NCBI GenBank assembly: GCA_964625235.1
Contig: CAZVAZ010000002.1
Span: 7,378 to 58,488 of the forward strand
DNA: 51,111 nt
Reading direction: 5' to 3'
Origin: an uncultured Hyphomicrobiales bacterium
Lineage (GTDB): Bacteria; Pseudomonadota; Alphaproteobacteria; Rhizobiales; JAJFHR01
Below the pieces are notes generated by a model. That model did not search any database. It saw nothing but the letters and a program-made list of their open reading frames with translations, and was not told the origin of the DNA. The first letter of the stretch is position 1. Every line of letters starts with the position of its first letter. Both the position numbers and the translations under genes were made by a program. This document shows positions 12,889 through 45,905 of this stretch, piece by piece.

Positions 12889-12892
12889 ACAT

Positions 12893-14403: not shown

Positions 14404-14470
14404 TGCTATGAAACTGAAACAAGCTGCGTAGTTCTACAAGTAGACCCCGTTAAAAATGGGGGGATTATCA
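14404..14470 (+). repeat. IS3-like (rve-family) right terminus, 67-bp relic; left member of an inverted pair
   Basis: TGCTATGAAACTGAAACAAGCTGCGTAGTTCTACAAGTAGACCCCGTTAAAAATGGGGGGATTATCA matches the reverse complement of 45782-45849 with about 4 mismatches and 1 indel. It includes the last codons (..MKLKQAA*) and a ...CA terminus. Confidence 0.75.
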
Positions 14471-15532
14471 ATCCAGATACTTTTGCACATCGGGCAGGAA
14501 CAGGCGATGCTGGGACATGCAGCGGCGTATGTCCGGCAGGTTGTCTCTGGTCCAGGCGATGGTGCGCTCCAGACCATGGCTTATTTCCACACCAGCCGTA
14601 AATCCAAGCGTCTCGCGCGATTTGGCCGGATCGCCGAACCGCCGGCCTGAGCGATCCCAGTCGCGGGCAGGTTTTAGATCGACGGGCGTTTTGTTGCCGG
14701 TGATGGCATTGATGGTCTCGGCCAATTCGCGGATGGTGGTTTCTCGACCCGATGCCAGATTATAGACGCCACCGGGCTCACCATGGAGGGCTGCGGCCAT
14801 CAAACCGCGTGCCATGTCTTCGACAAAGATGAAATCGCGGCTGGCGTTACCGGCATTATCAAGCGGCAGTGCCTCGCCCATGAGAGACTTGAAAATGAAA
14901 GTCGGCGTTACATTGCGCCACACGGTGTGCGCAGTGCCACGCCAGCGACCGGCACCAAGAATCTCACGCGGGCCATAAACGTTCTGAAAGCGCGCTTTGA
15001 CGAAGGGAAAGCCGAACTGTTGAAAATAATAATTGCCATAAAGCTCGCCGATGATTTTGGAAATCGAATAGGGGCTGTCATGAAAGAGCGATATCGGCGC
15101 ATCTTCATGCGTCGCCTCGGCTTCATCATAGGTCTTTTCAGCCACGGCGCAGCCCGCCGCTGCATAGACGACCTTTTTCAGGTTTTTGCAGTCCTTGAGG
15201 TGGTCGAACAGCTTGAGCGTGGTCAGCGTGTTGTTTTCATGGTCTGCCAGCGGATCGTGGATAGATGACTGGTTGCCGTGATAGCACGACAGATGCCAGA
15301 CATAATCCAGATCATCGGGCAACTGACGCAACACCTGCTCACTGGTGATTGAGCCGAAGATGAACTCGACCGCCTCATGGTCCGGCAGGTTAACAACATC
15401 GGACGACAACAGATTATCAACAATGACAAGTTTTTCCGGCCCTTGTTCCACCAGCATATGGGCCAGATTGGAGCCGACGAAGCCGGCACCGCCGACAATC
15501 AGAATTCTGGCTTTCGAGAAATTGTGGTTCAT
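14468..15532 (-). CDS. NAD-dependent sugar epimerase/dehydratase (extended SDR)
   Basis: It has the Rossmann motif ILIVGGAGFVGSNL and the catalytic motif SPYSISK (YxxxK). It is 354 aa. Its stop codon TGA is the first 3 nt of the IS terminus TGATAATCC. Confidence 0.85.
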   Translation of the reverse strand: MNHNFSKARILIVGGAGFVGSNLAHMLVEQGPEKLVIVDNLLSSDVVNLPDHEAVEFIFGSITSEQVLRQLPDDLDYVWHLSCYHGNQSSIHDPLADHENNTLTTLKLFDHLKDCKNLKKVVYAAAGCAVAEKTYDEAEATHEDAPISLFHDSPYSISKIIGELYGNYYFQQFGFPFVKARFQNVYGPREILGAGRWRGTAHTVWRNVTPTFIFKSLMGEALPLDNAGNASRDFIFVEDMARGLMAAALHGEPGGVYNLASGRETTIRELAETINAITGNKTPVDLKPARDWDRSGRRFGDPAKSRETLGFTAGVEISHGLERTIAWTRDNLPDIRRCMSQHRLFLPDVQKYLD

Positions 15533-16371
15533 TGGTTGAGCTCCGGTTTTGTGGCAGTGATATAAAGGTTCCAGCCCAGCCGCCGTGCCAGCCAGCTATC
15601 ACTGGGGCTGCCGAGAACTTTGCCGACAACCGCTGCGGCTTTATGCGGCAGCAGGAATAATTGTCGCCAGGACAGGTAATTGACCCGGAATTCATGCTTG
15701 CTGAAAGGGTGCAGCAACTCGCGGGCTTCTGTCTTTGAGTAAACCATTGCCAACGGACAGTCGGCACCGTCTGTGCGGTTGAGTGCTTCTTGTTGCGACA
15801 TGCCGCGGTAGCGCCGGTCAAACAGCCGCTTCAAACGCAACACCACCAAATAATTGTAGCTGTAGCGATAATAGAGCATGAGGATGACTTTGCCACCGGG
15901 CTTGAGCACGCGATGGATTTCGTCGATCGTAGGTCCGGGGTCGGGGATGTGATGCAGCACGCCCATGGAACAGACAATGTCGAATTGATTATCGTCAAAA
16001 GGCAGATGAACACCATCGATCTGCTGAAAGTCTGCGCTCAGATCTTCAAGTTCAAAGCGGCGGCGGCTTAACTCTATCGCTTTTGCGGTGAGGTCGACGC
16101 CGGTAACACTGGCGCTCTGACGAGCATAGCGCGACAGCACATAGCCGTTGCCGCACCCGACATCAAGCACGCTTGTGCCCTGTGATGAGGAATAGCCGTG
16201 TATCATGTCGGAGTAGGCATAAGGCTCGCAGTCTTCAGCCTCGCGAACAGCATCAAAGGCAGCGAAAAATTTGGGAGATCCGGGTGGCAGCGCAATGTTT
16301 TCCGCCGCCACCGGGTTTGCATCCCAGTAATCGCGAACCTCGCCGATATCGGGATCGCGGTCAGCCATCAC
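15529..16371 (-). CDS. Class I SAM-dependent methyltransferase
   Basis: Motif I is VLDVGCGNGYV and the post-I/II region is DIVCSMGVLHHIPD...LKPGGKVIL. It has 4-nt overlaps with both neighbours and is paralogous to the 18424-19263 product. Confidence 0.85.
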   Translation of the reverse strand: MMADRDPDIGEVRDYWDANPVAAENIALPPGSPKFFAAFDAVREAEDCEPYAYSDMIHGYSSSQGTSVLDVGCGNGYVLSRYARQSASVTGVDLTAKAIELSRRRFELEDLSADFQQIDGVHLPFDDNQFDIVCSMGVLHHIPDPGPTIDEIHRVLKPGGKVILMLYYRYSYNYLVVLRLKRLFDRRYRGMSQQEALNRTDGADCPLAMVYSKTEARELLHPFSKHEFRVNYLSWRQLFLLPHKAAAVVGKVLGSPSDSWLARRLGWNLYITATKPELNQ

Positions 16372-17315
16372 TGCCTGCCCAGGGTGGCCAGATGAGAATA
16401 TATGGCAGAAACGCCGTGGCGGTCATACCAGGAAAGCATGCGGTTGATGGTATCCTGAAAACCGATTTCTGCCTTCCACCCTAACACCCGCTCGGTTTCG
16501 CCAGGATCAAGCACCACGGCGGGAACGTCATCATCACCGGGAGGAACGATTGGCACATCGCCCGGATCAACGCCGAGATAGTCGGCTACCGCATCGAATA
16601 CGTTCTTGATGCTTCTTGCCTCGCCAGTGGAGATATTGAAAATCCCTGTGGGAGCATCATCGCCGAGCACGATATCCATAACCGAGAAAAAATCCTCCAT
16701 ATCGAGAAAATCGCGCTGGGTATCGCTGCAAAAGCAGCTTTTATCTTCCTTCAGCCGGGTATAGAAAGTCGGAATGGGCCCGATAGCCAGGCGTGGTCCG
16801 GTAATATTGGCCAGACGCAGTGAAACGGTTGGCACAGACCCCATCATCATAAACTGCTCGCCTGCAGTCTTTGAAATACCATAGCTGGTAAAGGGCCGGG
16901 TTGGTGCCTCGACTGGAATGGGTACTGTGTCCGGGCGGCCATAGCACAGCGCTGTCTGGAAATTGACAATCCGTTTGACCCCGGCAGTTTCTGATGCCCG
17001 CGCCACATGGATGGAGCCGGTGACGTTGGTGGCGGCATCCTCGGCCCAATTATTCAGATCCTTATAGGCGGCAGCCGAATGGATCACATGTGTCGGGGCG
17101 AAGTCGCTAAAGCACTGATCCACCAACGCCTTGTCAACGATTGAACCCTCCACAACCGTGAGACCCTTTATATCTTCCGGCACCACCTCGCGGTTGCTGG
17201 TGGCGAAATTGTCGATCACCAGAATTTCATGGCCCCGGGGCAGGTAGCGCTCGATCAGATTTGAGCCCAGACATCCCGCCCCGCCGGTTATAAGTATACG
17301 CATGCTGGCGGTCAT
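16368..17315 (-). CDS. NAD-dependent sugar epimerase/dehydratase (extended SDR)
   Basis: ILITGGAGCLGSNLIE and YGISKTAGE (YxxxK) are present. It is 315 aa and similar to the adjacent 17315-18268 product. Confidence 0.85.
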   Translation of the reverse strand: MTASMRILITGGAGCLGSNLIERYLPRGHEILVIDNFATSNREVVPEDIKGLTVVEGSIVDKALVDQCFSDFAPTHVIHSAAAYKDLNNWAEDAATNVTGSIHVARASETAGVKRIVNFQTALCYGRPDTVPIPVEAPTRPFTSYGISKTAGEQFMMMGSVPTVSLRLANITGPRLAIGPIPTFYTRLKEDKSCFCSDTQRDFLDMEDFFSVMDIVLGDDAPTGIFNISTGEARSIKNVFDAVADYLGVDPGDVPIVPPGDDDVPAVVLDPGETERVLGWKAEIGFQDTINRMLSWYDRHGVSAIYSHLATLGRQ

Positions 17316-18268
17316 TATTTATTCCCGCCCTCATCTTCCTCATGCTTGAGGTGGGTATAGCCGCCATGCACACCATATTTGTCAAAATATTCGACCGCGA
17401 GGCGCACAGTTTCTTCCAGCGGCGTGAATTCGGGCTCACCAAAGTCCTGATAGGTGCGGGACGGATCAAGCAAAATTGAAGGCACATCATCCTCACCCAG
17501 CGGTTTGACGTCGGGTGCCGGGTATTCGTTCAACTTCAACGCCTTTACCACGGCGTCATAAAGCTCAATGATAGCAATGTCGGTACCGGACGAAAAATGA
17601 TAGGCACCCGATCCTGCACCATCAGCGGCCTTGAGAACGGTTTTGGCCAGATCCTGGGCGAGCACAAAATCACGCCGGGATTCGGTAACAAAGCATTTCT
17701 TGCCCGCCTTCAGGCGTTCGTAAAAAATCGGCAGTGGTCCTGAGACATTGCGCGGGCCAACCACATTGGCGAGCCGGAACGACACCCAGTCCAGCCCCGA
17801 CAGCGCCAGATATTGCTCGGTAGGTGTTTTTGAGATGGAATAGCTTGAATCGCCCGGCAGGATCGGATGCTTTAGCGAAATCGGCTGTTCCTGCGGCTTG
17901 ATGCCATAACAAAGAGCGGTCTGGAAATAGATGAAACGGCCGACCTTGTTGTCCATGGCAGCACGAATGAGGGCTGCACCACCAGCTGCATTGACCAGAC
18001 AATCATTATACCAGTCTTCCGGGTCTTTGTAGGAAACGGCAGTATGCACCAATACATCGGGCTTGAAATCACCGATAAGCCGGTCAACCAGCGGTTTGTC
18101 CACGATAGAACCCTCGACAAAAGTCAGCCTGTCGTGACTTTCAGGCAGATGCAGTCGCCGCCCGGTTTCATAATTGTCAATTGCCAGCACCTCGTCGCCA
18201 CGCGCTAAATGCATTTCGGCCACATGACTGCCGACCTGCCCACAGCCACCGCTGATAAATATTTTCAT
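17315..18268 (-). CDS. NAD-dependent sugar epimerase/dehydratase (extended SDR)
   Basis: MKIFISGGCGQVGSHV and YSISKTPTE (YxxxK) are present. It is 317 aa and is a tandem paralog of the previous gene. Confidence 0.85.
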   Translation of the reverse strand: MKIFISGGCGQVGSHVAEMHLARGDEVLAIDNYETGRRLHLPESHDRLTFVEGSIVDKPLVDRLIGDFKPDVLVHTAVSYKDPEDWYNDCLVNAAGGAALIRAAMDNKVGRFIYFQTALCYGIKPQEQPISLKHPILPGDSSYSISKTPTEQYLALSGLDWVSFRLANVVGPRNVSGPLPIFYERLKAGKKCFVTESRRDFVLAQDLAKTVLKAADGAGSGAYHFSSGTDIAIIELYDAVVKALKLNEYPAPDVKPLGEDDVPSILLDPSRTYQDFGEPEFTPLEETVRLAVEYFDKYGVHGGYTHLKHEEDEGGNK

Positions 18269-18423
18269 TTTTCTACTCTTGTTTCTTGTTGGTTGAAATT
18301 AGGGAAAATGCACGGTTATTGTATGCCGCTATCCATATTGATCTTATATCATCTGCCAATCTGCATAACACTCATTTTTCTTATTCATCGCCATCCAGTG
18401 GCGATTATCAAAGACCTTTGGTA

Positions 18424-19263
18424 TTACTTTTTAAGTCGACAATAAAGATCAAGCCCCAGCATTTTACCAAATCTTAAAGCCTGATGGCGCGGCAGAGGTC
18501 TAAACACACCATCTTCACCGATATTTTCCCTCACAATCGAGCAATCAGAGAAGTCGTCACACATCACAGCCAGTTCCTGTGAGGTAACGAATTCTGTTTG
18601 TGGTGCCGCCTCTCCCGTCGAGGTCGTGTCATAGGCAGCACGGGCTTTTTTATTGCCGGCTGTATTGCCAATTTTGTCTAGGCCGCCCGGTTTGGCGAGC
18701 AACCGCCGCAGTGTTCGGATCGGAGATGTCTGAAACTGACGATAGGAACAGGCGTTGTAAACCATGATCATCGCCTTTCCACCTGTTTTGAGCAACCGGT
18801 GGACTTCGTTTATCGCTGCTGCCAGATCTCCTGTATGATGCAGGCAGCCGATGGCCACGACCCAGTCAAAAAATTCATCCTCAAAAGGCGATTGCAAAAC
18901 ACTGCCCTGTACAGCTTCTCCATTTAAACGCCCTTGCTCAAGACGCAGATTTACCATATCAACGGGTCCAGCGGCAATATCAAGCCCCTTGTAATCGGCA
19001 CCGCTCTCCGCAATTTTCTGAGCGACAGTGCCGTACCCAAGACCAACTTCGAGAACCTTCTTTCCCTCCATTTGTGTAAATGGAATATGAGTGAAGAGGT
19101 ATGGATAGAAGTCGAAATACCAGTCATCGAACTTCAACAGGCTTTCCGGCGAATCGTCGATAATCCCCAATTGCTTTGCCAACTGGGAACCGCACAGGGT
19201 ATCCCAGAATTCGGCATTTTTGTTGTCTATGCTCTGTTGAGGCTGTTTGGTCTCTTCATTCAT
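18424..19263 (-). CDS. Class I SAM-dependent methyltransferase
   Basis: Motif I is VLEVGLGYGTVAQ, followed by WVVAIGCLHHTGD...LKTGGKAMIMVY. It is 279 aa. Confidence 0.85.
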   Translation of the reverse strand: MNEETKQPQQSIDNKNAEFWDTLCGSQLAKQLGIIDDSPESLLKFDDWYFDFYPYLFTHIPFTQMEGKKVLEVGLGYGTVAQKIAESGADYKGLDIAAGPVDMVNLRLEQGRLNGEAVQGSVLQSPFEDEFFDWVVAIGCLHHTGDLAAAINEVHRLLKTGGKAMIMVYNACSYRQFQTSPIRTLRRLLAKPGGLDKIGNTAGNKKARAAYDTTSTGEAAPQTEFVTSQELAVMCDDFSDCSIVRENIGEDGVFRPLPRHQALRFGKMLGLDLYCRLKK

Positions 19264-19460
19264 TGCGCTTTAGTCTTTCACACTTTCACTTGTTGTAATC
19301 CTCTGATGACGGATTTGGGGCTTGCAGGATATCGTCAGGCCGCAACGAATTTTTTGCGAATAAGAATTATGATTTGGATTTTCATCCATGAAAATCAAAT
19401 AATCTAACTTTATCGGGAAGCGGTCTATTATAATGAATTGACATAGCAAATCACAATAGC

Positions 19461-20846
19461 TCATGCCTTGAGCAGTAATTTCCTCAGTACAGGCTTGATA
19501 ATACTTGAAACCTTTCGTCCCAGAAATAACAGTGGGACAGAAACAAAATCAGGTAGTTTTTTATCCACAAACTCATAGCTGGCATATCGTATTTTTTGAA
19601 TAAACAGAACAATTTCCATCCGTCTTTGCGCTTTTTTTGTGGCCACAGCATTGGCCTCCTCCAGCCGCTGGAGTTCAGTATCTATCATAGCTTCCAAATT
19701 TTCAGTCCTGCTTGAATTGACTTCTTCAAAATTTTTGCTCGTTGCCCTGGCCGTTCCGGCATACTTTCGCAACTCTTCATTGATTGTTTTGTCAAACCGT
19801 TCAATAAAGGTTTTGTGTGTCCATGTTGGTGAGCAGGCTATTTCTTCATAAGCGTTTTTGATAATTTTTCCAGCCTTGTCGGGGTCGCGCAGAATAGTGA
19901 TAACTTCGTCAATGTTGGAATGGTCGGGCTTAAGTTCGACGTAATGACGTCCTGGCGTTATGACATCTGAATAAGTACCGGGATACAGGATCATCAGCAC
20001 ACGCAAGGCGGCGGCCTCAAAAACCCTTGGCGATATGACGTGGATAACCACGTCATTATCCCGCCCCTCAAGGAACTTATCCCTAATCTCTTCAAAGGAG
20101 GCTTTTGGGTTAGCCGTCTCATATTTATCGATTTCCTGATACACTAGGCCGCTATAATCGACAAAACTGGCCCCGCTTTCGGTTCCGAGCGTTGCCCGGC
20201 AGGAACCCATGAAATCAATCCAGTCTTCGCCGTAAATGCGGCTGGATTCGGACATGGATATATCGCTGCGCAAGTTGTATTTTTTATCTTCCTTGAGCAT
20301 TCTTTCGCCAATCTGCCACTTTTGCAACGCAAACGAGCCACACCAGCCAGGCAGTTTTCTGGCCCGGTAGCCGATGTCCAGCGGACGGTCCTCATAATCG
20401 AGCACCTGCCTCGCCAGCAGGTCTTCAGGAACATAACCTGTCAATGTTTGCTCAAAACGAACATTATCGAAGTAGTCATTGCGATATATCTTTCGGGTCA
20501 CATCCTCGTTTACTACGGTAAAAATGACAGAAACCCCGAGTTTCTCGGCAGCTTTTGAAGTGCGGTCGACCCAGCGGAACTCATCTTGGATAAACAATAC
20601 CTTGGGACCGTTAAAAGCTGCTATTCTTTGAGTCAACTCATCTGAAAGGAATTGAGGAAGGGAGATGATTATTGAATAATGAAAAACAATAGCGTCAAAC
20701 AATTCGACATCAACATCAATTTTACCGGCAGCACTGGAATCAAGCGTAACCACATTATGTCGGCTGTATTGCTTGAATGCCCTGATATGAACTTCCACAG
20801 TCCCTGTATGCCGCGCTGAATCCGAGCAGAGCAGCAAGATATTCAT
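19461..20846 (-). CDS. CgeB-like glycosyltransferase (DUF3880 / Glyco_trans_1_2-type C-terminus)
   Basis: The C-terminal ISPRVFEAAALRVLMILYPGTYSDVITPGRHYVELKPDHSNIDEVITILRD is the CgeB-family signature region. The ORF is open to 20993, but the ATG at 20846 (MNILLLCSD) follows a GGGGGAAAG ribosome-binding site. The gene is visibly AT-rich. Confidence 0.6.
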   Translation of the reverse strand: MNILLLCSDSARHTGTVEVHIRAFKQYSRHNVVTLDSSAAGKIDVDVELFDAIVFHYSIIISLPQFLSDELTQRIAAFNGPKVLFIQDEFRWVDRTSKAAEKLGVSVIFTVVNEDVTRKIYRNDYFDNVRFEQTLTGYVPEDLLARQVLDYEDRPLDIGYRARKLPGWCGSFALQKWQIGERMLKEDKKYNLRSDISMSESSRIYGEDWIDFMGSCRATLGTESGASFVDYSGLVYQEIDKYETANPKASFEEIRDKFLEGRDNDVVIHVISPRVFEAAALRVLMILYPGTYSDVITPGRHYVELKPDHSNIDEVITILRDPDKAGKIIKNAYEEIACSPTWTHKTFIERFDKTINEELRKYAGTARATSKNFEEVNSSRTENLEAMIDTELQRLEEANAVATKKAQRRMEIVLFIQKIRYASYEFVDKKLPDFVSVPLLFLGRKVSSIIKPVLRKLLLKA

Positions 20847-21021
20847 TTTCTTTCCCCCAGTATTTGGTAAAAAAACACGTTCGCTCGTTGCTTTGGTGCA
20901 TAGTTCTTTTACCTGATCGCTGACAACAGTGTTGCATGTTTGCTGCAAGTAATGCTGATTGATTGTGAATGGCTGTATTGACATCAAAAACATTTAATTT
21001 TCAAGAGTAAAATTTCCGTTT

Positions 21022-24064: not shown

Positions 24065-24068
24065 GATC

Positions 24069-24779: not shown

Positions 24780-24810
24780 GAAGTACCATGTGCTCCTTCA
24801 GCCGCCGATC

Positions 24811-28003: not shown

Positions 28004-28024
28004 TAGACTAGAGAATGTGAGTGA

Positions 28025-29200: not shown

Positions 29201-29254
29201 TGCGAACCTGAATAGGTTTCCAATATTTCTGCATTATACCTGCTGAAAATCCGT

Positions 29255-31053: not shown

Positions 31054-31073
31054 GTTCTTGCATATAAAGCGCT

Positions 31074-34066: not shown

Positions 34067-34110
34067 CGACTATGCCTCAATCTGCAATGAAAAAATGTCC
34101 ACCGGGATAT

Positions 34111-35262: not shown

Positions 35263-35283
35263 AATAATCTCACCAATTCTCAA

Positions 35284-37236: not shown

Positions 37237-37240
37237 GTTG

Positions 37241-38209: not shown

Positions 38210-38249
38210 AATATTTCCAGATTTTTACTTCCATCAACGATAGTCTTGC

Positions 38250-40163
38250 TCATGGTGCCATACTGCGCCATTCAGCCGCCTTGTCGTGAAACGCCTGCTG
38301 CCACAGCTCGAGACTCAACAAGCCCCAGGTTTTGCGTGAAAAGCGGCTGTCGGCATTGAAACTCTCGAGAACCTTGTCAGAACGCATGAACGGACGGGAT
38401 TTGGCTGTTTGCGAGGAAAAAATATCGCGAACATAGTCTTTGAGCTCATTGCCATACCATTCTTTCAAAGGCACCGGGAACCCCATTTTGTCGCGCCGTG
38501 ACAGCAGTTTTTCCGGTAAAACGTCACTGAAGGCTGTTTTGAGCATATGCTTCATGTTGCCGCTTTCGAATTTTACGTCAGCGGGTACGGTGGCGGCGAA
38601 TTCGATCAGTGGATGATCCAGCATCGGCACCCGGCTTTCCAGACCATGGGCCATGCTCATGCGGTCTTCCACCTGCAACAGCGCTGGCAGCAGGCACTTG
38701 AAATCGAAATGCGTCATTTTATCAAAATAGGCTTCCTGGCGCACATTAGTGGTGGAATTGAAAATTCCTTCAAAGCGCTCAAACACACTTTCTTTATCAA
38801 GCCCGGTCCAGTCAACTTCGTCCTGCAAATCGTTGGAACGATCTATCAGGCGGAAATAGCGCTGGTCGAGATCTCCAAACAGGCCTTCCTGCCACAGCAT
38901 TTGCATCATTGGTTTATATTCGCGCAAAACTCCGAGATTGGGCACAATTGATTCAATCGTGACAATGTAATTGCCATTTCTGTAGGTGCCATCGAGTGCC
39001 GCTTTTAAGGACTGCTCCAGATAAGCCACCAGATAGCGGGCATAGCCGCCGAAAATCTCGTCACCGCCTTGCCCGCCGAGCACCACTTTAACGTGGCGCG
39101 CGGCAAGTTCAGAAACCATATATTGAGGAAATGAACCCGGACCGGCAACCGGATAATCAAGATGATATATGACTTTTTGAATGTTGCTTTCGAAATCACT
39201 GGCGGTTATGTCGCATTGAAAAAGCTCACCGTTAGCCGCATCGGCGGCAATTTCGGCATATGGGCTTTCATCATAGCCGCTATAATCAGTGAACTTGCCA
39301 TGGAAAAACTGGCGGTTTTGCGAGTTATGTCTGGCAGCCAGAATTGAGGTCAGGCTGGAATCGATACCACCCGACATATAACCGCCAACAGGAACATCGG
39401 CGCGCAGGTGAATATCAATTGAATCTTCCATGAGTTCGCGCAGCCGGTTGTAGAAATAGCGCGGTGAATGATCCCAGTCGATATTATAGTTCACATCCCA
39501 ATAGCGTTGAATGCTCATGTGGTTGTTTTCGATCACCAGCCGGTGGCCGGGCATCAATTGCTTTACGCCCTTGAACAAGGTGAGATCATCGACTGAGTAC
39601 TGGAAAGTCAGGTATTGCGCCAACGCCTCAGGCTCGGTGTCGATCTCCGGCAAAAACGGCATTAGCGCCTTGGGCTCGGAGGCAAAGTAAAAAACACCAT
39701 CCACAGTCGCATAATAAAATGGCTTGATGCCAAAACGGTCGCGCGCGGCAATCAGGCGTTGGCGTTTCTCATCCCAAATGGCGAACGCGAACATACCGCG
39801 CAGATGGGTGGTGAAGTCATCGCCATAGCGTTCATAGGCGGCGAGAATGGTCTCGGTATCGGAGGAACCCTTGAACGGCCAGTCACCTTTGAGTGCCTCG
39901 CGCAATTCCAGATAGTTGTAAACTTCGCCGTTATGAGAGATGACGCAGCCGTTGGGCCCGCTCATCGGCTGGGCGCCGGTCTCCGACAGGTCAATGATTG
40001 ACAATCGCCGGTGCGCCAGCCCCGCCTGGTCATTAGCGGCGCACCATACGCCCTCGCCATCGGGGCCGCGATGAGCAATAATCTCGCCCATGACCTGCAG
40101 CTTGCGCTGCAGATGCCTGACCGGTTGACCGCTGATACTGACTATTCCGGCAATTCCACACAT
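38250..40163 (-). CDS. Asparagine synthase-like glutamine-dependent amidotransferase (second copy)
   Basis: It has N-terminal MCGIAG and the PP-loop YMSGGIDSSLTS. It is 637 aa and is the first gene of the long operon. Confidence 0.9.
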   Translation of the reverse strand: MCGIAGIVSISGQPVRHLQRKLQVMGEIIAHRGPDGEGVWCAANDQAGLAHRRLSIIDLSETGAQPMSGPNGCVISHNGEVYNYLELREALKGDWPFKGSSDTETILAAYERYGDDFTTHLRGMFAFAIWDEKRQRLIAARDRFGIKPFYYATVDGVFYFASEPKALMPFLPEIDTEPEALAQYLTFQYSVDDLTLFKGVKQLMPGHRLVIENNHMSIQRYWDVNYNIDWDHSPRYFYNRLRELMEDSIDIHLRADVPVGGYMSGGIDSSLTSILAARHNSQNRQFFHGKFTDYSGYDESPYAEIAADAANGELFQCDITASDFESNIQKVIYHLDYPVAGPGSFPQYMVSELAARHVKVVLGGQGGDEIFGGYARYLVAYLEQSLKAALDGTYRNGNYIVTIESIVPNLGVLREYKPMMQMLWQEGLFGDLDQRYFRLIDRSNDLQDEVDWTGLDKESVFERFEGIFNSTTNVRQEAYFDKMTHFDFKCLLPALLQVEDRMSMAHGLESRVPMLDHPLIEFAATVPADVKFESGNMKHMLKTAFSDVLPEKLLSRRDKMGFPVPLKEWYGNELKDYVRDIFSSQTAKSRPFMRSDKVLESFNADSRFSRKTWGLLSLELWQQAFHDKAAEWRSMAP

Positions 40164-40311
40164 ATCGCAGAAAACTCCTTTTCGCAGGCCAGTTAGACCT
40201 GTAACACTGACAAACGTTTTGGCGCTGATTTTATGGCTTGTAGGACGGTAAGGCTCACTGGTTTAAATTTCCTTGCGGACAAGAAGTATGGCAGAAAAAA
40301 AACTGCTTTTC

Positions 40312-40324
40312 CACGGCTACCGCA
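40312..40324 (-). promoter_or_regulatory. ops/JUMPStart-like element in the operon leader
   Basis: The minus strand reads TGCGGTAGCCGTG. The core GCGGTAGC is identical to positions 2-9 of the E. coli ops consensus GGCGGTAGCGTG, with a 1-nt insertion before GTG. It lies in the 271-nt leader between the NusG-paralog gene and the first biosynthetic gene, and a U8 tract (40295-40302) follows it. Confidence 0.45.
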
Positions 40325-40434
40325 GGGGAGGGTGAACGACCATCTTCCCGGTACGAGGCTTTTAGACTAGAGTGTTCAGAAGCTGAATGTCAATATCATT
40401 TTTCAGATTTCCGACCGCATCCAAGCGCTGTGCC

Positions 40435-40929
40435 TCAGGCTTCAACCACTCTTTTTGAGGACATGCGAACGCGAACTTTTCTACCCAGAATTTCCATCAG
40501 CGTCCAAATACGGTCCTTGTCATCAATCTTGATTATCTGGCCGATTGCATCATGAAAGGCGGTGCCGTAACATCGTATTTTCTGGCCCGGACTGAAACGC
40601 TCATGAGGCGCGGGAGCCTTTAATTCACCGGCATTTTCTAACGATTTCAAATCGGCAACAAACGCATCGGGTACAGGACTGAGGTGGTCTGAAAACATCA
40701 CAACAGCGCGCACACCGCGAGAAAAAACAATCGGACGCCACTGGTCGTGATCCGGGTCAATCCTGACAAACAGGTAGCCTGGAAAAAACGGTCGCAAAAC
40801 TGTTGTGGTTTTGCGGGCATGGCGCCTCGTGGCTTCGACCCTCGGGCAATAACATTCAAATCCCTGCCGTTCAATATTGGCAAAAGCCAAATCTTCGGCG
40901 TTGGCGTGGGTGTTGACAGCTATCCACAT
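40435..40929 (-). CDS. NusG-paralog transcription antiterminator (RfaH/UpxY/ActX-like)
   Basis: The NGN-domain pattern is WIAVNTHANAEDLAFANIERQGFECYCPRV...RPFFPGYLFVRID, and the C-terminal region is KOW-like. It is 164 aa. Confidence 0.8.
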   Translation of the reverse strand: MWIAVNTHANAEDLAFANIERQGFECYCPRVEATRRHARKTTTVLRPFFPGYLFVRIDPDHDQWRPIVFSRGVRAVVMFSDHLSPVPDAFVADLKSLENAGELKAPAPHERFSPGQKIRCYGTAFHDAIGQIIKIDDKDRIWTLMEILGRKVRVRMSSKRVVEA

Positions 40930-40943
40930 GAATTTGATGGCTC

Positions 40944-41561
40944 CTAGATAAAGGCCGGGATCAGCGCTTGGGAATGATTAAGGTTGAGTTTTGTCAGAAG
41001 CGCTTCAAGATCGCATTTTTCAGGCAGTTTGATGTCCGGCCCTGTGCCTATAATGGCGTCCACAAGCCCGCCCGGCACGCTGGCTATAACGTCTTGAACC
41101 GTTGATTTCACCGGCAACCCGGCGCAGGTGCTGTTTTTGGACGCAGCATCAAATACACAATGGGCCGTGACATCATCAATCCGTGACAGCACCAGCATGG
41201 CCAATTCGGCAAGCTCACTGTCACCAACCAGAACAATATCCTTCCAGCCATTGGCGCGGCAAAGGTTGAACAATGCCTCATATTGCTGACGTCCGACACG
41301 AAAAATATCAAACGAAATACTGAGATATTCGGCTGTAAGGCGGGTTTTTTCCGCAAAACCATCCGGCGTGAGATAATAAAGATAGCGTTTGACCGGCACC
41401 TGGCTAAGCTTGACCAGCCCCTTTTTGACACAACGCCTGAGGTGCCAGTTGATGGTGCCTACCGAAACACTGAGCGCTTCGGAAAGCTTGCGCTGGGAGA
41501 CACCGGGATCCCTGTCAATCTCAACCAGCAACTCTCGTACTATTCGTTCTTCAGACATCAC
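40944..41561 (-). CDS. Winged-helix (MarR-type, EPS-associated) transcriptional regulator with an extra C-terminal alpha/beta domain
   Basis: The N-terminal wHTH is VSQRKLSEALSVSVGTINWHLRRCVKKGLVKL. The C-terminal region (DIVLVGDSELAELAMLVL...) looks Rossmann/CoA-binding-like but lacks a GxGxxG motif. Confidence 0.65.
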   Translation of the reverse strand: MMSEERIVRELLVEIDRDPGVSQRKLSEALSVSVGTINWHLRRCVKKGLVKLSQVPVKRYLYYLTPDGFAEKTRLTAEYLSISFDIFRVGRQQYEALFNLCRANGWKDIVLVGDSELAELAMLVLSRIDDVTAHCVFDAASKNSTCAGLPVKSTVQDVIASVPGGLVDAIIGTGPDIKLPEKCDLEALLTKLNLNHSQALIPAFI

Positions 41562-41579
41562 ACTTCACTATAATTTTGC

Positions 41580-41596
41580 TGTTCATAATATGAACA
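41580..41596. promoter_or_regulatory. 17-bp palindrome, candidate operator upstream of the MarR-type regulator
   Basis: TGTTCATA-A-TATGAACA lies 19 nt upstream of the regulator start codon at 41561. Confidence 0.4.
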
Positions 41597-41711
41597 TAGA
41601 GAATATGTGATATCTTTAGCATCGCAAAGTCAAGGCTTTTCAACAAACTGTCGCTGCGCTACGGAACGCCTTTTCTTCAAGCCAATCTACCCAAATCAGG
41701 TGGAATTCACC

Positions 41712-42758
41712 TCATATTACAGAGCCTAGCATCTCGGCGATGCGTCGACCAGCATTGCCGTCGCCATAGAGTTCAGTTGCCGGCACCTGGCCTGTCGCAG
41801 CCCAGTTAATCGCAGCAGTAATTTCCAGTGGATCAGCCCCCGTCAAGCGATTGACACCCGTTTCGACAAGCTCTGTCCACTCGGTCTCATCGCGCAACGT
41901 GACACAACGCTTGCCGAGAAAATAAGCCTCTTTTTGCAGGCCGCCGGAATCCGTCAACACAAATGAAGCACCACTCACCAGAGCGATCATCTCCAGATAT
42001 GATACCGGCTCACAGAATTCAACATTTTGCGGCGCTTCCAGACCATGAGTGACAAGAGCGTTGCGTGTACGCGGGTGGATGGGCCATCTAACCGGCAATT
42101 CAGCTGTGGCAATACCGCGAAGAATTCCAGCCAAACGCGCCGGGTCATCAGTGTTTTCGGCTCTATGAACTGTTAAGACAGCGTAGGGTTCTTTATCGTT
42201 ACTTGTTATCCGGCCGCGATAATAAAGCACGGCATCATACATGACATCCCCGACCATATGAACACCGCTGGTAATGCCTTCACGCGCCAGATTATCTTTG
42301 GCCGTCACGGAAGGTACGAACAAAAGCGTTGAAACATGGTCGGTTAAAACACGATTGATTTCTTCGGGCATCCGCCGGTTGTAACTTCTCAAGCCCGCCT
42401 CCACATGGGCGATCGGGATATTGAGCTTTGCTGCGGCCAGCGCACCGGCCAGGGTGGAGTTGGTGTCGCCATACACCAGCACCAGATCTGGTTGACGGGC
42501 TTCGATTTCACGCTCGCACAATTCCAGCATACGCCCGGTTGCCTGACCATGTTTTCCTCCGACGATCTCCAGATTGACTGCAGGTTTTGGGATATCCAGT
42601 TCAGCAAAGAAAACATCGCTCATATTGGCGTCATAATGCTGACCGGTGTGGATGATGTCCTCAACGATAGTACCGCCATCGAGATTGGCAATCGCACGAC
42701 TGACCACGGCACACTTGATAAACTGGGGGCGCGCTCCAACAAAACTTACTATTTTCAT
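41712..42758 (-). CDS. wecB: UDP-N-acetylglucosamine 2-epimerase (non-hydrolysing)
   Basis: MKIVSFVGARPQFIKCA, HVEAGLRSYNRRMPEEINR and the DSGGLQKEA motif are present. It is 348 aa. Confidence 0.9.
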   Translation of the reverse strand: MKIVSFVGARPQFIKCAVVSRAIANLDGGTIVEDIIHTGQHYDANMSDVFFAELDIPKPAVNLEIVGGKHGQATGRMLELCEREIEARQPDLVLVYGDTNSTLAGALAAAKLNIPIAHVEAGLRSYNRRMPEEINRVLTDHVSTLLFVPSVTAKDNLAREGITSGVHMVGDVMYDAVLYYRGRITSNDKEPYAVLTVHRAENTDDPARLAGILRGIATAELPVRWPIHPRTRNALVTHGLEAPQNVEFCEPVSYLEMIALVSGASFVLTDSGGLQKEAYFLGKRCVTLRDETEWTELVETGVNRLTGADPLEITAAINWAATGQVPATELYGDGNAGRRIAEMLGSVI

Positions 42759-42803
42759 ACAACCTCAAGATGCTCGGATCAGAATCCAAGCCTGCTATGG
42801 CGG

Positions 42804-42824
42804 CAAATTGTCAAATTGTCAAAT
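42804..42824. repeat. Tandem CAAATTGT repeats in a divergent promoter region
   Basis: CAAATTGT-CAAATTGT-CAAAT occupies 42804-42824, with a further CAAATTG at 42846-42852. The site lies between wecB (-) and the DUF2793 gene (+). Confidence 0.5.
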
Positions 42825-42934
42825 ATCCTGCTGGCATTTTTGCTGCAAATTGAAAGCTGTTAAGCGATTAATCCCCGGCCTCGCATCGTGTCTTAGGATG
42901 CAATTTTTCTGATTGCAGTAGCGAGAGCAAAGTA

Positions 42935-44002
42935 ATGAACAATACTCCCAACCTGAAGATGCCGAACATCGAAGCAGCCCAGGCGCAAAAACACATTACC
43001 CATAATGAGGCGTTGCGGGTTCTCGATGCCATTGTGCAACTCAGTGTCAACGACCGTGACCTGACCACCGCACCTCTGTCGCCTGTTGATGGCGCACGCT
43101 ATATTGTTGCGGCTGCCGCCACTGGTATATGGGCGGGTAAAGATCAACAGATCGCCGCCTGGCAGGACAATGCCTGGGATTATTATGTGCCCCAGGAGGG
43201 CTGGCTGGCCTGGGTAGCGGATGAGGACAAATTACTGGCATGGGATGGCACAGTGTGGAACGAAGTTTCCGGCGGTGGCGGCGGCTCAGCTAATCTGAAC
43301 CCGGCTGATGGCGGGTTGATCGGGATAAACTCGACTGCCAGTACGACCAACCGCCTGTCGGTATCGTCACCCGCGACACTGTTTAATCACGAAGGTAATG
43401 GCCACCAGCAGAAGATAAACAAAAACACGGCTGGCGATACGGCCAGCCAGCTTTACCAAAGTGGTTTTTCAGGACGCGCCGAAATTGGCCTGACCGGCGA
43501 TGATGATTTCCATTTTAAAGTAAGCCCTGATGGCACCAGTTGGGTTGAAGCCATTAACATTGACCGCAACAACGGCATGACATCGCTATTGCTCCCGGCG
43601 GTGCAGGTGACAAAATCTGTAACGCAATCAATCGCCAATTCCACCGTTACCACTTTAACCTGGGATACAGAGAATTTCGACACCGATATCATGCACGATA
43701 CTGTCACCAATAATTCACGGTTAACCGCGCGCAAAGCCGGTAAGTACGTCATCTTCATGAACATTGTTTTTTCAAGCAGCAATACCGGCGGCAGGCAGCT
43801 TTTAATCCGTAAAAATGGCACCACACAACTATGGTCGAACTTTTTTGCCAACACGCTTGGTGGTCAGGATCAGTTGTTAACCGCAACAATCGCCGACCTT
43901 GCCGCCAATGATTATATCGAAGGTCAGGTATGGCACAGTGCTGGTGCCGCTATTGATGTCACCAACTTCAGCATAATGACCATGTACAAAGCCGGAGTTT
44001 AA
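42935..44002 (+). CDS. DUF2793-family protein with a C1q/TNF-like C-terminal domain (phage tail-fibre-like)
   Basis: The N-terminal PNLKMPNIEAAQAQKHITHNEALRVLDAIVQLSV...DGARYIV...AAWQDNAWDYYVPQEGWLAWV is the DUF2793 signature. A Gly run (SGGGGGS) follows. The C-terminal jelly-roll-like pattern is LTARKAGKYVIFMNIVFSS...LLIRKNG...DYIEGQVWH. Confidence 0.7.
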   Translation: MNNTPNLKMPNIEAAQAQKHITHNEALRVLDAIVQLSVNDRDLTTAPLSPVDGARYIVAAAATGIWAGKDQQIAAWQDNAWDYYVPQEGWLAWVADEDKLLAWDGTVWNEVSGGGGGSANLNPADGGLIGINSTASTTNRLSVSSPATLFNHEGNGHQQKINKNTAGDTASQLYQSGFSGRAEIGLTGDDDFHFKVSPDGTSWVEAINIDRNNGMTSLLLPAVQVTKSVTQSIANSTVTTLTWDTENFDTDIMHDTVTNNSRLTARKAGKYVIFMNIVFSSSNTGGRQLLIRKNGTTQLWSNFFANTLGGQDQLLTATIADLAANDYIEGQVWHSAGAAIDVTNFSIMTMYKAGV

Positions 44003-44004
44003 AA

Positions 44005-44475
44005 ATGAATATCGCAGACGCTATCCAGTTTCTATATCCCGCAGCCCAGCCACTTGAAGATTTTGAAGTCATGGATGAAAGTGACGGCAAGGGGCCGTTT
44101 ATAAGTAAATGGAACATTTTGCTTAAAAACGGCAAAAAAGCACCAATGCCAAGTCTGGACGAACTGACGGCGGCATATACCGCTTCGCAACTACCAACGC
44201 AAGAAGACTTTCGCACCGAGGCGCAACGACGCATTCTTTCCGTTTTTCCGGACTGGAAACAGCGCAATAACCTGTCGCGCATGCTGGAACTTTCCCGCAA
44301 GGGTGAGGCCAATTGGTCAACCGGTGAACGAGCTGAGGTTGCAGCTATTGAGGCAAACTGGAGTTGGTTAAAATCGGTGCGTACAGCATCTGACGAGTTA
44401 AAAATTACATCACCAACTGACTTTACAGAAGACAAGCACTGGCCGGCTCGACCACGATCAAGTGCTTTGGTATGA
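44005..44475 (+). CDS. XkdW-like / tail-fibre-assembly-chaperone-like protein
   Basis: The N-terminal MNIADAIQFLYPAAQPLEDFEVMDESDGKGPFISKWN...PMPSLDEL parallels Bacillus PBSX XkdW (as recalled). The C-terminal half resembles phage tail assembly chaperone repeats. It starts 3 nt after the upstream stop. Confidence 0.5.
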   Translation: MNIADAIQFLYPAAQPLEDFEVMDESDGKGPFISKWNILLKNGKKAPMPSLDELTAAYTASQLPTQEDFRTEAQRRILSVFPDWKQRNNLSRMLELSRKGEANWSTGERAEVAAIEANWSWLKSVRTASDELKITSPTDFTEDKHWPARPRSSALV

Positions 44476-44494
44476 ACAACACCGGCTCCGTCAA

Positions 44495-45715
44495 TTAAAG
44501 TGCCTGAAAAATATCGCTGGTTTGCCTGGCTCTATGAGCATAGGTATGGTTTTCCATGACCAGTTGATGAGCCTGATCGACAATTTTCTGCCAGTGGGAT
44601 TTGTCCTTTAGTTTTTCCACCACTTCTGAAATATTGGAAAAATTAGGTTCCAGTGAGATGTAATGTTCGTCCGCCGTCAGAATATCATTATACCGTCCGG
44701 GAAACATAATCTGACAGGTTCGCGTGCCGATAGCATCGAAGTTGCGCGATGAAATTCCCTTTGGATATACCGGGCATTTCTGTGCGGTTTTGAAAAATCG
44801 CTGATAGATATCGTCAAAATCAAGTTTTTCATCTTCAAAAACCCCATATTTGATAGGGCCTTTTTTCATCGCATAAATCAGTGGTGATTTTAACGCGGCA
44901 GGCAGATAGCGAACCAGGCGGCGCAATCTGCTTTTTTCACCGATCACCAGCCCGGCGCGATTTTGCGTGGTATAAGCGTGGACCTGATTTACCAGACCAT
45001 CATCAGGAGACAGATACCAGCTGCCGGTTTCAGTGGAAAGAACAGCTTTGCAACGGCCAAGAAACCCTCCCCATTTATCCGGCGTAAATCGATGAGTTGT
45101 ACTGATGTCGTGCGTGAGGCCAAGATTGGGGCAATGTTCAACGAAGTAGTCAATTATGCGATTGCGATCATCATCTCCCAGATGCGGCGGATAGCGATAG
45201 CTGCGCATGCCAACATCGATGGGCCGGTCTTCATAAGGTGTTTCAGCGTTGAATGCATCCGGATTAAGCGCATGAGGAATGGACACAATCTTTGCACCGC
45301 AACTTTGGTAAACATAACGACCGGCTTCTTCAAGCAACTGTGTTGCAATAACATCTGTGCGAATACTTTTAAACATCTTGATCTTGTCGGCCAAAGGTTG
45401 ATAGGGCGAGTTGAATTCATTGCCGACAAAGGCTAAAAGTATCGGGCGCTTTCGGTCCATCAAAACAGATTTTAACGGTGTAAGATAATCAAGAGTGTCC
45501 CCGGTTGCACTGTGCAGCAATATTATCAGATCGAACTCTTCAATGCAATTTGACAGATCAAATGGCTCAATTTTCATCAAATTTAAAACCTGACATTTGA
45601 ACAGCCTGGAGTTGGCATAGGCACCTATCCAATCGCTATAATATGATGCCCGGTGATCATATTGTAACGTGAGGATCAGGGCTCTAATTTGACTGCCATG
45701 GTCACCGTGTCCCAT
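44495..45715 (-). CDS. CgeB-like glycosyltransferase (second copy)
   Basis: ISSRNFDAIGTRTCQIMFPGRYNDILTADEHYISLEPNFSNISEVVEKLKD aligns with the C-terminus of the 19461-20846 product. It is 406 aa. Confidence 0.6.
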   Translation of the reverse strand: MGHGDHGSQIRALILTLQYDHRASYYSDWIGAYANSRLFKCQVLNLMKIEPFDLSNCIEEFDLIILLHSATGDTLDYLTPLKSVLMDRKRPILLAFVGNEFNSPYQPLADKIKMFKSIRTDVIATQLLEEAGRYVYQSCGAKIVSIPHALNPDAFNAETPYEDRPIDVGMRSYRYPPHLGDDDRNRIIDYFVEHCPNLGLTHDISTTHRFTPDKWGGFLGRCKAVLSTETGSWYLSPDDGLVNQVHAYTTQNRAGLVIGEKSRLRRLVRYLPAALKSPLIYAMKKGPIKYGVFEDEKLDFDDIYQRFFKTAQKCPVYPKGISSRNFDAIGTRTCQIMFPGRYNDILTADEHYISLEPNFSNISEVVEKLKDKSHWQKIVDQAHQLVMENHTYAHRARQTSDIFQAL

Positions 45716-45781
45716 CAGTTAAAATTTCCTTCTTTCAATGAAACTGATTTTCCGGCAGCCTCACGGAGTTGGTCTCACATT

Positions 45782-45905
45782 GCTGGGTAATCCCCCCATT
45801 TTTAATGGGGTCTATTTGTAGAACTACGCAGCTTGTTTCGGTTTCATAGCAGGCGTGAGCCCACCGATGGCCATATTGGGCCGGTCGTTGTTGTATGTAC
45901 AGAGC
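45782..45905 (-). pseudogene. IS3-like (rve integrase-core) transposase 3-prime fragment plus terminal repeat; right member of the inverted pair
   Basis: The minus strand reads ..LALCTYNNDRPNMAIGGLTPAMKPKQAA*, which contains the YNxxRPHxxLxGxTP motif of rve-domain transposases. It is followed by the terminus ending ..GGGGGGATTACCCA (TG at 45782-45783 on the + strand). The upstream limit is uncertain. Confidence 0.7.

Follow-up and report, generated by a model that had tools for sequence, protein, structure and literature searches.

Gene content of the locus

The window (the whole stretch of DNA analysed, 51,111 nucleotides) comes from an uncultured Hyphomicrobiales bacterium. It contains a large surface glycan cluster, which has insertion sequence (IS) remnants on both sides and, on the right, also a phage-like module. 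The features discussed below are as follows.

12375..12606, forward strand: tRNA-3′-end-like remnant (12375-12391) and repeat array
12591..14169, forward strand: IS66-A, an internally deleted IS66-family element
14179..14403, forward strand: IS66-B, 5′ fragment of a second IS66-family element, with IRL GTAAGCGTCC
14404..14470, forward strand: left IS3-family stub, with the last 9 OrfB codons (IAMKLKQAA and stop), a hairpin and the right terminal repeat (IRR)
14468..45715, nearly all reverse strand: surface glycan cluster, 31.2 kb, ABC-transporter-type, O-antigen-like
14468..15532, reverse strand: last cluster gene, SDR epimerase, 354 aa, full length
24811-25602: ABC2_membrane (Wzm)
25599-26822 and 26819-28003: Wzt/RfbE-like ATPases (NF050108, E = 4e-59 and 2e-37, both under the curated cut-off)
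40435-40929, reverse strand: RfaH-like NusG paralogue, inside the cluster
40944-41561, reverse strand: MarR-type EPS regulator, inside the cluster
42935..44475, forward strand, opposite to the cluster: DUF2793 (tail-fibre-like) and XkdW gene pair
44495..45715, reverse strand: first cluster gene, CgeB-like glycosyltransferase, 406 aa
45716..45783: native upstream spacer, from the glycosyltransferase start to the IS tip
45784..45934, reverse strand: right IS3-family stub, with the last 37 OrfB codons, a hairpin and the IRR
46094..50982: phage-like 5-kb module, with two DUF5681 genes (reverse), a ParB-N6 DNA methyltransferase (reverse), DUF3489, DUF2924 and a large serine recombinase (forward)
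51019..51092: CCTGTTA/AACAGGG short repeat array just downstream of the serine recombinase stop

Besides Wzm and the two Wzt-like ATPases, the cluster is predicted to encode five SDR epimerase/dehydratases, four methyltransferases, three or four formyltransferase-like proteins, WbqC, a WbmS-like deacetylase, a radical SAM enzyme, a FemAB-like protein, two AsnB-like amidotransferases, DegT, a UDP-GlcNAc 2-epimerase, CgeB-like glycosyltransferases and a 650-aa protein without a family match. Judged by its gene content, with Wzm, Wzt, glycosyltransferases and nucleotide-sugar genes in one operon-like block, the locus appears to be of the ABC-transporter-dependent surface glycan type. No Wzx, Wzy or WaaL was seen in the cluster. 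The DUF2793/XkdW pair is kept at the same place in all relatives of the cluster.

The serine recombinase in the right flank has Resolvase and Recombinase domains and matches the phrog_95 integrase (E = 2e-90). The same six-gene module recurs in five IMG/VR contigs (L032-L036), at 51–76% amino acid identity for the recombinase and methyltransferase and 31–63% for the four smaller genes. With companion genes kept as a unit in viral contigs, the module has the make-up of a serine-recombinase phage-like element. An exact look-up of the DUF5681 protein found no record.

Two IS3-family stubs border the cluster

A sequence-only reading of this DNA had proposed that inverted copies of one IS terminus bracket the 31-kb locus, and this was confirmed by a repeat search and by alignments to IS3 ends. 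In the 51-kb window, arms at 14404-14467 and 45788-45851 are 95% complementary over 64 nt, a similarity as strong as first read, and the only other inverted repeats of at least 30 nt are two weak 30-nt pairs (73–81%). Read out to the tips, the arms span 14404-14470 and 45784-45851 and differ by three substitutions plus a tip difference (ATTATCA on the left, ATTACCCA on the right) that amounts to one substitution and a 1-nt indel. The left arm and the count of mismatches and indels were thus as originally given; the right arm had been placed about 2 nt off, at 45782-45849.

A chance origin of the repeat is ruled out by the alignment of both arms to IS3-family 3′ ends. The left arm aligns to intact copies over 64 nt at 97%, and the right arm (45785-45934) over 150 nt at 88% to the intact copies L009 and L010. 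The right arm also matches 138 plasmid records, in which the annotation under the match is mostly “IS3 family transposase”. The OrfB coding tails end in ..IAMKLKQAA on the left and ..YNNDRPNMAIGGLTPAMKPKQAA on the right, each followed by a stop, and the right tail matches rve_3 (E = 3.9e-4). The transposase tail and the TG...CA-type terminus are as described before. The right stub has changed in the manner of a pseudogene (W to C, K to C, L to P), with non-conservative replacement of a conserved W and a conserved K.

Both arms are therefore 3′-end stubs, the right ends of one IS3-family clade in inverted orientation, with the lost bodies lying outward. The IRR tips face the cluster and both transposase genes read toward it. 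The left tip (..GGGGGGATTATCA) ends at 14470 and overlaps the last cluster gene at its TGA stop; in the relative L014, the matching codon is a native TGA. The right tip, with its TG at 45784-45785, lies 68–70 bp upstream of the ATG at 45715. Both termini thus point inward at the borders of the first and last genes, as had been claimed, and the cluster lies between the inner ends and not outside them. As geometry, the Tn5/Tn10 layout suggested earlier holds: two right ends, inverted, with the deleted bodies outward.

Almost the whole of both IS bodies is gone, again in agreement with the first reading. About 66–67 bp remain on the left, where about 1,135 bp have been lost, and about 150 bp remain on the right. 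IS similarity ends at 14404 on one side and at 45934/45935 on the other, beyond which lie the IS66 fragment and unrelated spacer DNA, respectively. The window holds only these 3′ stubs of the IS, with no transposase, left end or target duplication for it, and the stubs are now without transposition function. They are identical to each other at 62 of 66 positions (93.9%), and each is 93–97% identical to copies from unrelated metagenomes. Two linked variant sites separate them (G,G as in L012 versus A,A as in L010).

The parent element and its other copies

The parent type is a 1.2-kb IS3-family element with intact relatives in marine metagenomes, including the samples of the window itself. Copy L010 (1,201 bp) has the two overlapping ORFs with a frameshift and the TG..CA terminal inverted repeats that define an IS3-family element: orfA (HTH_Tnp_1, E = 1e-20), orfB (rve and rve_3), a slippery site of the A6G, −1 frameshift type (GGAAAAAAG, at nt 329) and an IRL (TGGGTAATCCCCCC) that matches the reverse complement of the right end at 13 of its first 14 positions. 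The same orfA and orfB domains and A6G site are found in L009 and in a Sulfitobacter dubius plasmid copy (in L007). All three copies have 13–14-bp terminal repeats, and the window stubs match their final 66 and 150 nt in alignments. The termini are of the TG..CA type, TGGGTAATCC in L010 and TGGTAATCC in the Sulfitobacter copy, the terminal repeat of the latter being TGGTAATCCCCCC. Size and ends presumably recall the IS407 group. There was no clear direct repeat around L009 or L010 that could be a target-site duplication of 3–5 bp, and the opposite ends of the window copies are deleted.

An exact 27-nt pattern scan of collections that exclude the window's own contig matched four metagenome contigs and one genome contig. 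Two of the five matches are intact ISs and three are tails only (L011 and L012 truncated, L008 cut by the contig end); none was an alternative IS-bounded copy of the cluster. The element is multi-copy in this community. The same samples are rich in intact copies, with depth over the stubs 3–8 times that of the flanks, and loose ends of the assembly graph at 14404 and 45934 run on into the intact orfB of other contigs. In two metagenomes, the graph splits exactly at 45782/45783, with one branch leading into the IS and the other not. The non-IS continuation at 45782 (TGTCCGTCGTCATATAAACTGGAAC), from a variant strain without the right stub, had no match in the window or the compared loci. In the spacer at 45716..45783, the proximal ~50 nt are weakly alignable with relatives.

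The left outer flank

The left stub abuts the wreckage of two IS66-family elements. IS66-A comprises a 69-aa first ORF, tnpA, tnpB and a 147-aa tnpC without the DDE core, has terminal repeats GTAAGCGTAC.. and is flanked by the 8-mers GAAAAAAC and GAAACAAC. In an internal comparison, the first ORFs of IS66-A and IS66-B are homologous, in the latter as far as about 14345. IS66-B is fused to the IS3 stub at 14403/14404, creating a chimeric 53-aa ORF (14270-14431); the interior of IS66-B here meets the interior of an IS3 element, which marks a deletion and not a transposition. The fragment 14165-14410 had no match in the plasmid collection.

Upstream of IS66-A, the array consists of about seven (T/C/A)ACAGGGAA repeats, four of them at 21-nt spacing, with four exact copies of AACAGGGAA against 0.38 expected. 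Similar arrays follow the serine-recombinase stop in L032, L033 and L036, as well as in the window at 51019-51092. The left array is oriented as if a recombinase gene had once stood between 12606 and 14404; no proteins or coding remnants of the recombinase module were found in 11880-14480. In the closest relative on the left side (contigs L014-L016, 84–90% nucleotide identity), the same last cluster gene is directly followed, in L016, by a decayed serine recombinase in the orientation implied by the window's array. The recombinase-type array, together with the recombinase beside the same gene in the nearest relative, suggests that the left outer flank is ancestral and not a new target site. 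The array could also belong to a second, unrelated element.

The cluster in related genomes

Among relatives with 76–90% nucleotide identity, the cluster occupies at least three genomic contexts. In GCA_024278055.1 it lies between tRNA-Val/response regulator RR119 and bfr-rpmJ-pyk, and elsewhere it lies between a wbpBDEA-like operon and a decayed serine recombinase; GCA_964549055.1 also has an IS-free version. Looked for at other positions, as the first reading had proposed, the locus was found in IS-free form, and no relative had it between intact IS copies. The IS-bounded form is found only in this population (L001-L006), relatives being IS-free at both borders. In no IS-free relative does the cluster have either of the flanks seen here, and at each end the loss of synteny falls within a few nucleotides of an IS tip. 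Relatives syntenic at tdh diverge right after this gene and have no cluster downstream of it. A direct repeat of the tRNA end was not found on the far side of the cluster in GCA_024278055.1, which therefore offers no evidence for a classical tRNA island.

Origin of the IS-bounded arrangement

The reading that we consider best, with about even confidence, is that two IS3 copies inserted in place and that IS-driven inversion or deletion and decay followed. The conserved 31-kb cluster would already have been cargo beside a serine-recombinase phage-like element downstream of tdh when one 1.2-kb copy inserted on the stop codon of its last gene and a second about 70 bp upstream of its first gene. 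Recombination and deletion among the IS3 copies, other IS copies and the two IS66 elements would then have reshuffled the neighbourhood, with the cluster probably inverted between the two oppositely oriented IS3 copies and a larger segment inverted as well. The same rearrangements may have cut the two IS copies down to stubs of 66 and 150 bp. The IS pair would have acted as portable homology for inversion and deletion, not as transposon ends. Neither a single inversion nor a circular permutation places the recombinase module with the gene orientations observed. At least two inversions are needed; no intermediate arrangement of this history was recovered. The stubs show reshuffling by mobile DNA, but not a jump of the whole cluster as a single transposon.

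Its main rival, only partly supported, is that the locus is a decayed composite transposon. It is possible, with a probability well short of even, that an inverted IS3-family pair captured the cluster and that the IS-cluster-IS unit transposed via its outer IRL ends into the tdh-adjacent phage-like island. We are similarly tentative about the later stage, in which deletions removed both IS bodies and fixed the cluster, as in ISApl1-mcr-1-ISApl1 (Tn6330). Altogether, a 31-kb O-antigen-type cluster that moved as one unit into the phage-like island of a marine alphaproteobacterium, and was locked there by IS-body loss, is a minority reading. The geometry is right for it, both inner ends being IRR with the bodies outward; the cluster varies in context among relatives and is missing downstream of tdh in the tdh-syntenic ones. 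IS3-family elements are able to enclose and move very large pieces of chromosome, as in the 210-kb IS2-like composite “megacircle” of B. thailandensis (PMC6350997), and composite transposons are known to decay, loss of the IS bodies in Tn6330 leaving short IRR stubs of 42 or 90 bp and immobile cargo (PMC5821093). One composite transposition also accounts for both tip-coincident synteny breaks in fewer steps than two insertions and two or more rearrangements would take. Against it, no intact outside ends, target duplication, functional transposase or empty site joining both outer flanks was found, nor the same IS-bounded unit at other locations. Each stub resembles unrelated copies as closely as it resembles the other stub, and the two differ at the linked variants; the flanks are a mosaic of the IS66 wrecks and the phage-like module, the left outer flank looks ancestral, the two further IS66 wrecks show that ISs simply accumulate at this locus, and the B. 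thailandensis composite uses a single IS in its circular intermediate (PMC6350997). That the cluster was once mobilisable as a unit, as first suggested, is thus possible, but it is not the best-supported history, because the left neighbourhood looks ancestral and the outer ends and their like were not found.

It is unlikely that the cluster is simply cargo of a serine-recombinase integrative (phage-like) island moved by site-specific recombination, with the IS3 copies as incidental later insertions. The recombinase module does adjoin the cluster, as does the decayed one in L016; the tRNA-like remnant with its array and the inverted array at 51019-51092 bound the whole 12.4-51.1 kb; the cluster sits directly beside tRNA-Val in other relatives; and phage tail-fibre-like genes are embedded in it in all lineages. 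However, the module in the five IMG/VR relatives is a compact 5 kb that ends after the second DUF5681 gene and has no cargo, and the tRNA-end repeat is lacking on the far side in GCA_024278055.1. The equally improbable corollary that the IS3 insertions merely hit non-essential DNA at the operon borders, with no part in placing the cluster, leaves unexplained why both synteny breaks fall on IS tips. Already disfavoured, and very improbable indeed, is a functional inverted repeat (MITE-like, a terminator/promoter cassette or a recombination site for programmed inversion) instead of IS debris. The stub does form a hairpin with a 7-bp stem, the right copy scores as terminator-like on the forward strand, and truncated tails of the same IS recur in L011 and L012. 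The copies nevertheless break off at different points, after 66 and 150 nt, and both still contain transposase codons, and the hairpin is of unremarkable stability (z-scores −0.2 to −2.0). Scans gave no convincing outward promoter-like site in the right stub and nothing convincing to make the left stub a terminator. At the left end the stem is broken, and at the right end the terminator-like site faces the wrong way for the cluster; no invertase is positioned for these sites.

Relation to known systems

IS remnants border O-antigen and capsule loci, for example the Brucella wbk region and, with IS1358, Vibrio cholerae O139. The present locus is likewise an exchanged surface-polysaccharide cluster with IS debris at its edges; unlike in those cases, the remnants are the same end of one IS clade, inverted, and lie exactly at both limits of the conserved module. 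Tn5 and Tn10 also have inverted IS copies around cargo, with inside and outside ends, but they are cut-and-paste, IS4-family composites with intact outside ends, whereas the present locus lacks outside ends and its IS family is copy-out-paste-in. Tn6330 shares the bracketing of cargo by two copy-out-paste-in IS copies, with 2.6 kb of cargo and IS30-family elements compared with 31 kb and the IS3 family here; for Tn6330 the intact transposon, single-ended forms and empty sites are documented, and the window locus shows the end state only (PMC5821093). The B. thailandensis megacircle has intact IS copies and a detectable circular intermediate with one IS, to which nothing in the window is comparable (PMC6350997).

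This is a known kind of feature and leaves knowledge of IS biology and composite transposons unchanged. Few parts of bacterial genomes change hands as often as surface-polysaccharide loci, but what carried them can seldom be seen. In this locus the joints survive with single-nucleotide precision: one IS tip sits on a stop codon, and at the other the population's assembly graph forks. Since relatives also keep IS-free versions of the cluster, the locus could be a useful case study in the reshuffling of glycan genes by IS elements and a small serine-recombinase element among uncultured marine bacteria. In a sister population (L006), IS66-A carries a further, different truncation, and rearrangement is therefore continuing.

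Insertion sequence remnants bordering the glycan cluster

A single long inverted repeat was recovered by a repeat search of the whole window, in which 14404–14467 pairs with 45788–45851 over 64 nt at 95% identity. Extension by eye carries the arms to 14470 and 45784 and adds one substitution and a 1-nt indel (ATTATCA vs ATTACCCA); stub-to-stub identity is 62/66. The inverted repeat of about 66 nt claimed in the sequence-only reading is therefore real and matches through to both tips, with coordinates that hold for the left arm but are offset by 2 nt on the right; the remainder of that description was correct. The transposase codons read at the arm ends are also present, as IAMKLKQAA* on the left and ..WLCTYNNDRPNMAIGGLTPAMKPKQAA* on the right, where the coding tail matches rve_3.

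The right arm matched 138 alphaproteobacterial plasmid records carrying IS3-family elements at 74–80% identity, and an exact-pattern scan of metagenomes identified two intact close relatives, in contigs L009 and L010. The L010 element is 1,201 bp long. Its 88-aa orfA carries HTH_Tnp_1 and its orfB, in the -1 frame, carries rve and rve_3; it also has an A6G slippery site, and its terminal repeats agree with each other at 13 of their first 14 positions (TGGGTAATCCCCCC). The parent of the stubs thus fits the definition of the IS3 family. Aligned to the intact element, the right stub extends over 150 nt (45785–45934) at 88% and the left over 64 nt at 97%. Both are right terminal repeats (IRR) with their tips pointing at the cluster, as had been proposed, and the deleted IS bodies were therefore situated outward of it. 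The last 66 nt of the IS are 92–97% conserved across all its close relatives (L008–L010, L012).

In metagenomes containing the window's contig, read depth on the stubs is 3–8 times that of the flanks, and at the loose ends (14404 and 45934) the stub sequence leads, in other contigs, into an intact orfB, so complete copies are common within the same community. Other genomes, too, contain members of this IS clade as truncated 3′ tails (L012 2582–2857, from Hyphomicrobiales MAG OFTM307, and L011 300–460); in L012, an unrelated hydrophobic N-terminus runs in frame into the final ~45 OrfB codons. Members of this clade seem to leave IRR stubs repeatedly. The IS tail contains a hairpin, CCCC(A/G)TT-AAA-AATGGGG (14446–14462 and 45794–45810). 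In its G variant, found in the left stub, L008, L009 and L012, pairing survives as G.U solely on the transposase-sense strand, a hint that the hairpin may act at the level of the transposase mRNA or of the top DNA strand.

The glycan cluster and its relatives

The genes between the stubs predict an ABC-transporter-type surface glycan cluster.

Predicted content of the glycan cluster
14468–45715: export genes (Wzm, two Wzt-like ATPases)
14468–45715: sugar and glycan enzymes (glycosyltransferases, SDR enzymes, DegT, UDP-GlcNAc 2-epimerase, two AsnB-like amidotransferases)
14468–45715: modifying enzymes (several formyltransferases, WbqC, WbmS-like deacetylase, methyltransferases, radical SAM enzyme)
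14468–45715: regulators (RfaH-like NusG paralogue, MarR-type regulator)
42935–44475, + strand, opposite to the cluster: DUF2793 (phage tail-fibre-like, phrog_7049) and XkdW pair, between the first glycosyltransferase and the 2-epimerase

The DUF2793/XkdW pair is kept at the same place in every cluster relative (L020, L023, L027), which argues for a genuine component of the locus rather than recently acquired phage debris. The two AsnB-type glutamine amidotransferases (32189–34066 and 38250–40163; 625 and 637 aa) are paralogous, visible as a 78-nt direct repeat of 71% identity (33261–33338 and 39358–39435), and each may amidate a different uronic acid residue.

The gene for a 354-aa SDR epimerase, last in the cluster (14468–15532), ends in a TGA stop that the left IS tip overlaps. 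Its homologues are 350–356 aa long and L014, from a cluster relative, has a native TGA following the equivalent Asp codon, which argues that the gene is intact and that the IS is located on its stop codon. The first cluster gene encodes a CgeB-like glycosyltransferase (44495–45715), and the right tip lies 68–70 bp upstream of its ATG. The window is a JGI seawater metagenome contig, and both junctions are common to sister contigs. In two samples, the assembly graph forks exactly at 45782/45783, with a depth of ~11 on the stub branch and 7–9 on the other, whose sequence (TGTCCGTCGTCATATAAACTGGAAC) had no match in the window or the retrieved loci. Contigs of ~90% identity show a comparable fork into non-IS DNA at 14467/14468.

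Genome GCA_024278055.1 carries the entire cluster on one contig without IS. Its epimerase shares 94% protein identity with the window's, and its glycosyltransferase belongs to the same 90%-identity protein cluster, the representative of which is 88% identical to that of the window. The cluster is flanked there by inositol phosphatase-FGase-response regulator-tRNA-Val and bfr-bfd-response regulator-rpmJ-pyk; the tRNA-Val-side flank is common to L020 and L021, and the bfr-side flank to L018 and L019. Two relatives have a tRNA-Val(gac) gene ~180 nt in front of the cluster's first gene (L027 3522–3596, L020 2382–2456). Genome GCA_964549055.1 shares 84–90% nucleotide identity on the left side, and its first cluster gene is adjoined by a divergent wbpB/D/E/A-like operon (L023 5410–9482) encoding a UDP-sugar dehydrogenase, DegT, a hexapeptide acetyltransferase and a GFO/IDH/MocA oxidoreductase. 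No such operon adjoins the first cluster gene in the window or in GCA_024278055.1, so the precursor-sugar genes must be elsewhere or the glycan must differ. The GCA_964549055.1 contig stops 406 nt past the last gene; a decayed large serine recombinase after this gene was read on its sister contig L016 (GCA_006243245.1, with an identical epimerase). In tdh-syntenic relatives, homology is lost at ~11875, with different downstream genes in each. The contexts in these two genomes and the window make the cluster a conserved module in at least three genomic contexts. IS stubs at its borders were found only in this population among the cluster carriers compared.

Outer flanks

Features of the outer flanks
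12375–12606: tRNA-3′-like remnant, then ~7 AACAGGGAA repeats at 12418–12606, four of them spaced 21 nt
12591–14169: IS66-family element, internally deleted; tnpC cut to 147 aa, without DDE core; near-identical flanking 8-mers
14179–14403: IS66-family 5′ fragment, ~170–225 nt surviving; a deletion joint connects it with the left stub
14270–14431, + strand: chimeric ORF of 53 aa, with an IS66 first-ORF N-terminus (MPRMKAAKQEELEAFWHSHLDGW..) in frame with the last 9 IS3 OrfB codons
46094–50982: phage-like module (two DUF5681 genes, ParB-methyltransferase (ParB-N6), DUF3489, DUF2924, large serine recombinase)

On the left, ~480 bp without assigned feature separate the tRNA-like remnant from the core genes kbl-tdh; no tRNA gene was found in the window. 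Exact copies of AACAGGGAA number 4, against 0.38 expected. The insertion point of the internally deleted IS66 element is 9 bp away from the neighbouring IS66 fragment's left end, and a different truncation of it is seen in sister contig L006. The chimeric ORF, a product of the deletion joint, is called as a gene by gene callers.

On the right, a 160 bp spacer leads from the stub to the six-gene phage-like module, and a short array of the left flank's repeat type directly follows the recombinase stop (51019–51092). The module is a compact unit in IMG/VR contigs L032–L036, and there, too, the second DUF5681 gene is its last; three of these contigs (L032, L033 and L036) likewise have a repeat array behind the recombinase stop. 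The window's two arrays are inverted and 38.5 kb apart, with a single recombinase.

Origin of the arrangement

IS debris edging a horizontally mobile polysaccharide locus is a known phenomenon, of which this is a new example with unusually precise preservation. The inverted arms of the sequence-only reading are confirmed, and their interpretation as a decayed composite transposon that carried the cluster is supported in part. The geometry fits, both synteny breaks coincide with IS tips, the cluster is located differently in relatives, and there are precedents both for large IS3-family composite transposons (PMC6350997) and for the reduction of composite transposons to IRR stubs (PMC5821093). 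However, none of the defining features (outer ends, a target duplication, an empty site, or copies elsewhere with intact IS flanks) was found, the 62/66 stub-to-stub match does not exceed the identity of a stub to an unrelated copy, and linked variants differ between the stubs. The left outer flank also looks ancestral, because its array has the orientation to be expected had a - strand serine recombinase gene once separated it from the last cluster gene, an arrangement that is seen, decayed, in L016 of the nearest left-side relative. We regard a composite origin as possible but doubtful.

We give about even odds to in-place IS insertion followed by IS-driven rearrangement and decay. IS3 elements would have inserted at both cluster borders, the cluster would have inverted between the inverted IS3 pair, a larger segment would then have undergone a second inversion, and deletions would have come last. 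Such a history is compatible with the observed gene orientations, and it would account for the present position of the recombinase module, whose DUF5681 end adjoins the first-gene side. It costs more events than a single transposition, and none of its intermediate arrangements was recovered among the loci compared. That the cluster was cargo of a recombinase island, with incidental IS insertions, seems unlikely, and some other function of the repeat highly improbable.

Recombinase modules and repeat arrays

Small phage-like modules of one family carry (A/T)AACAGGG(A) arrays with ~21–22-nt spacing immediately 3′ of their large serine recombinase genes, often adjoining a tRNA-3′-like remnant.

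Locations of (A/T)AACAGGG(A) arrays
Window: 12375–12606, 51019–51092
L036: 7076–7445
L032: 7150–7350
L033: 180–400
L038: 1689–1800

An attachment-site arm, a packaging site and an origin are candidate roles for these arrays. In the viral contigs (L032–L036), the six-gene unit of ~5 kb has no other phage genes alongside. In L038, a DUF5681 gene lies directly upstream of a large terminase; DUF5681 proteins may accordingly resemble small terminases, and the unit may be a satellite-like element. About 25 nt beyond the window end at 51111, close to the contig end (L001 2–157), begins a helix-turn-helix ORF of transposase-like type (MPASIELRCDFDALSLRTLAKRC..), which may be another IS and may explain the assembly break.
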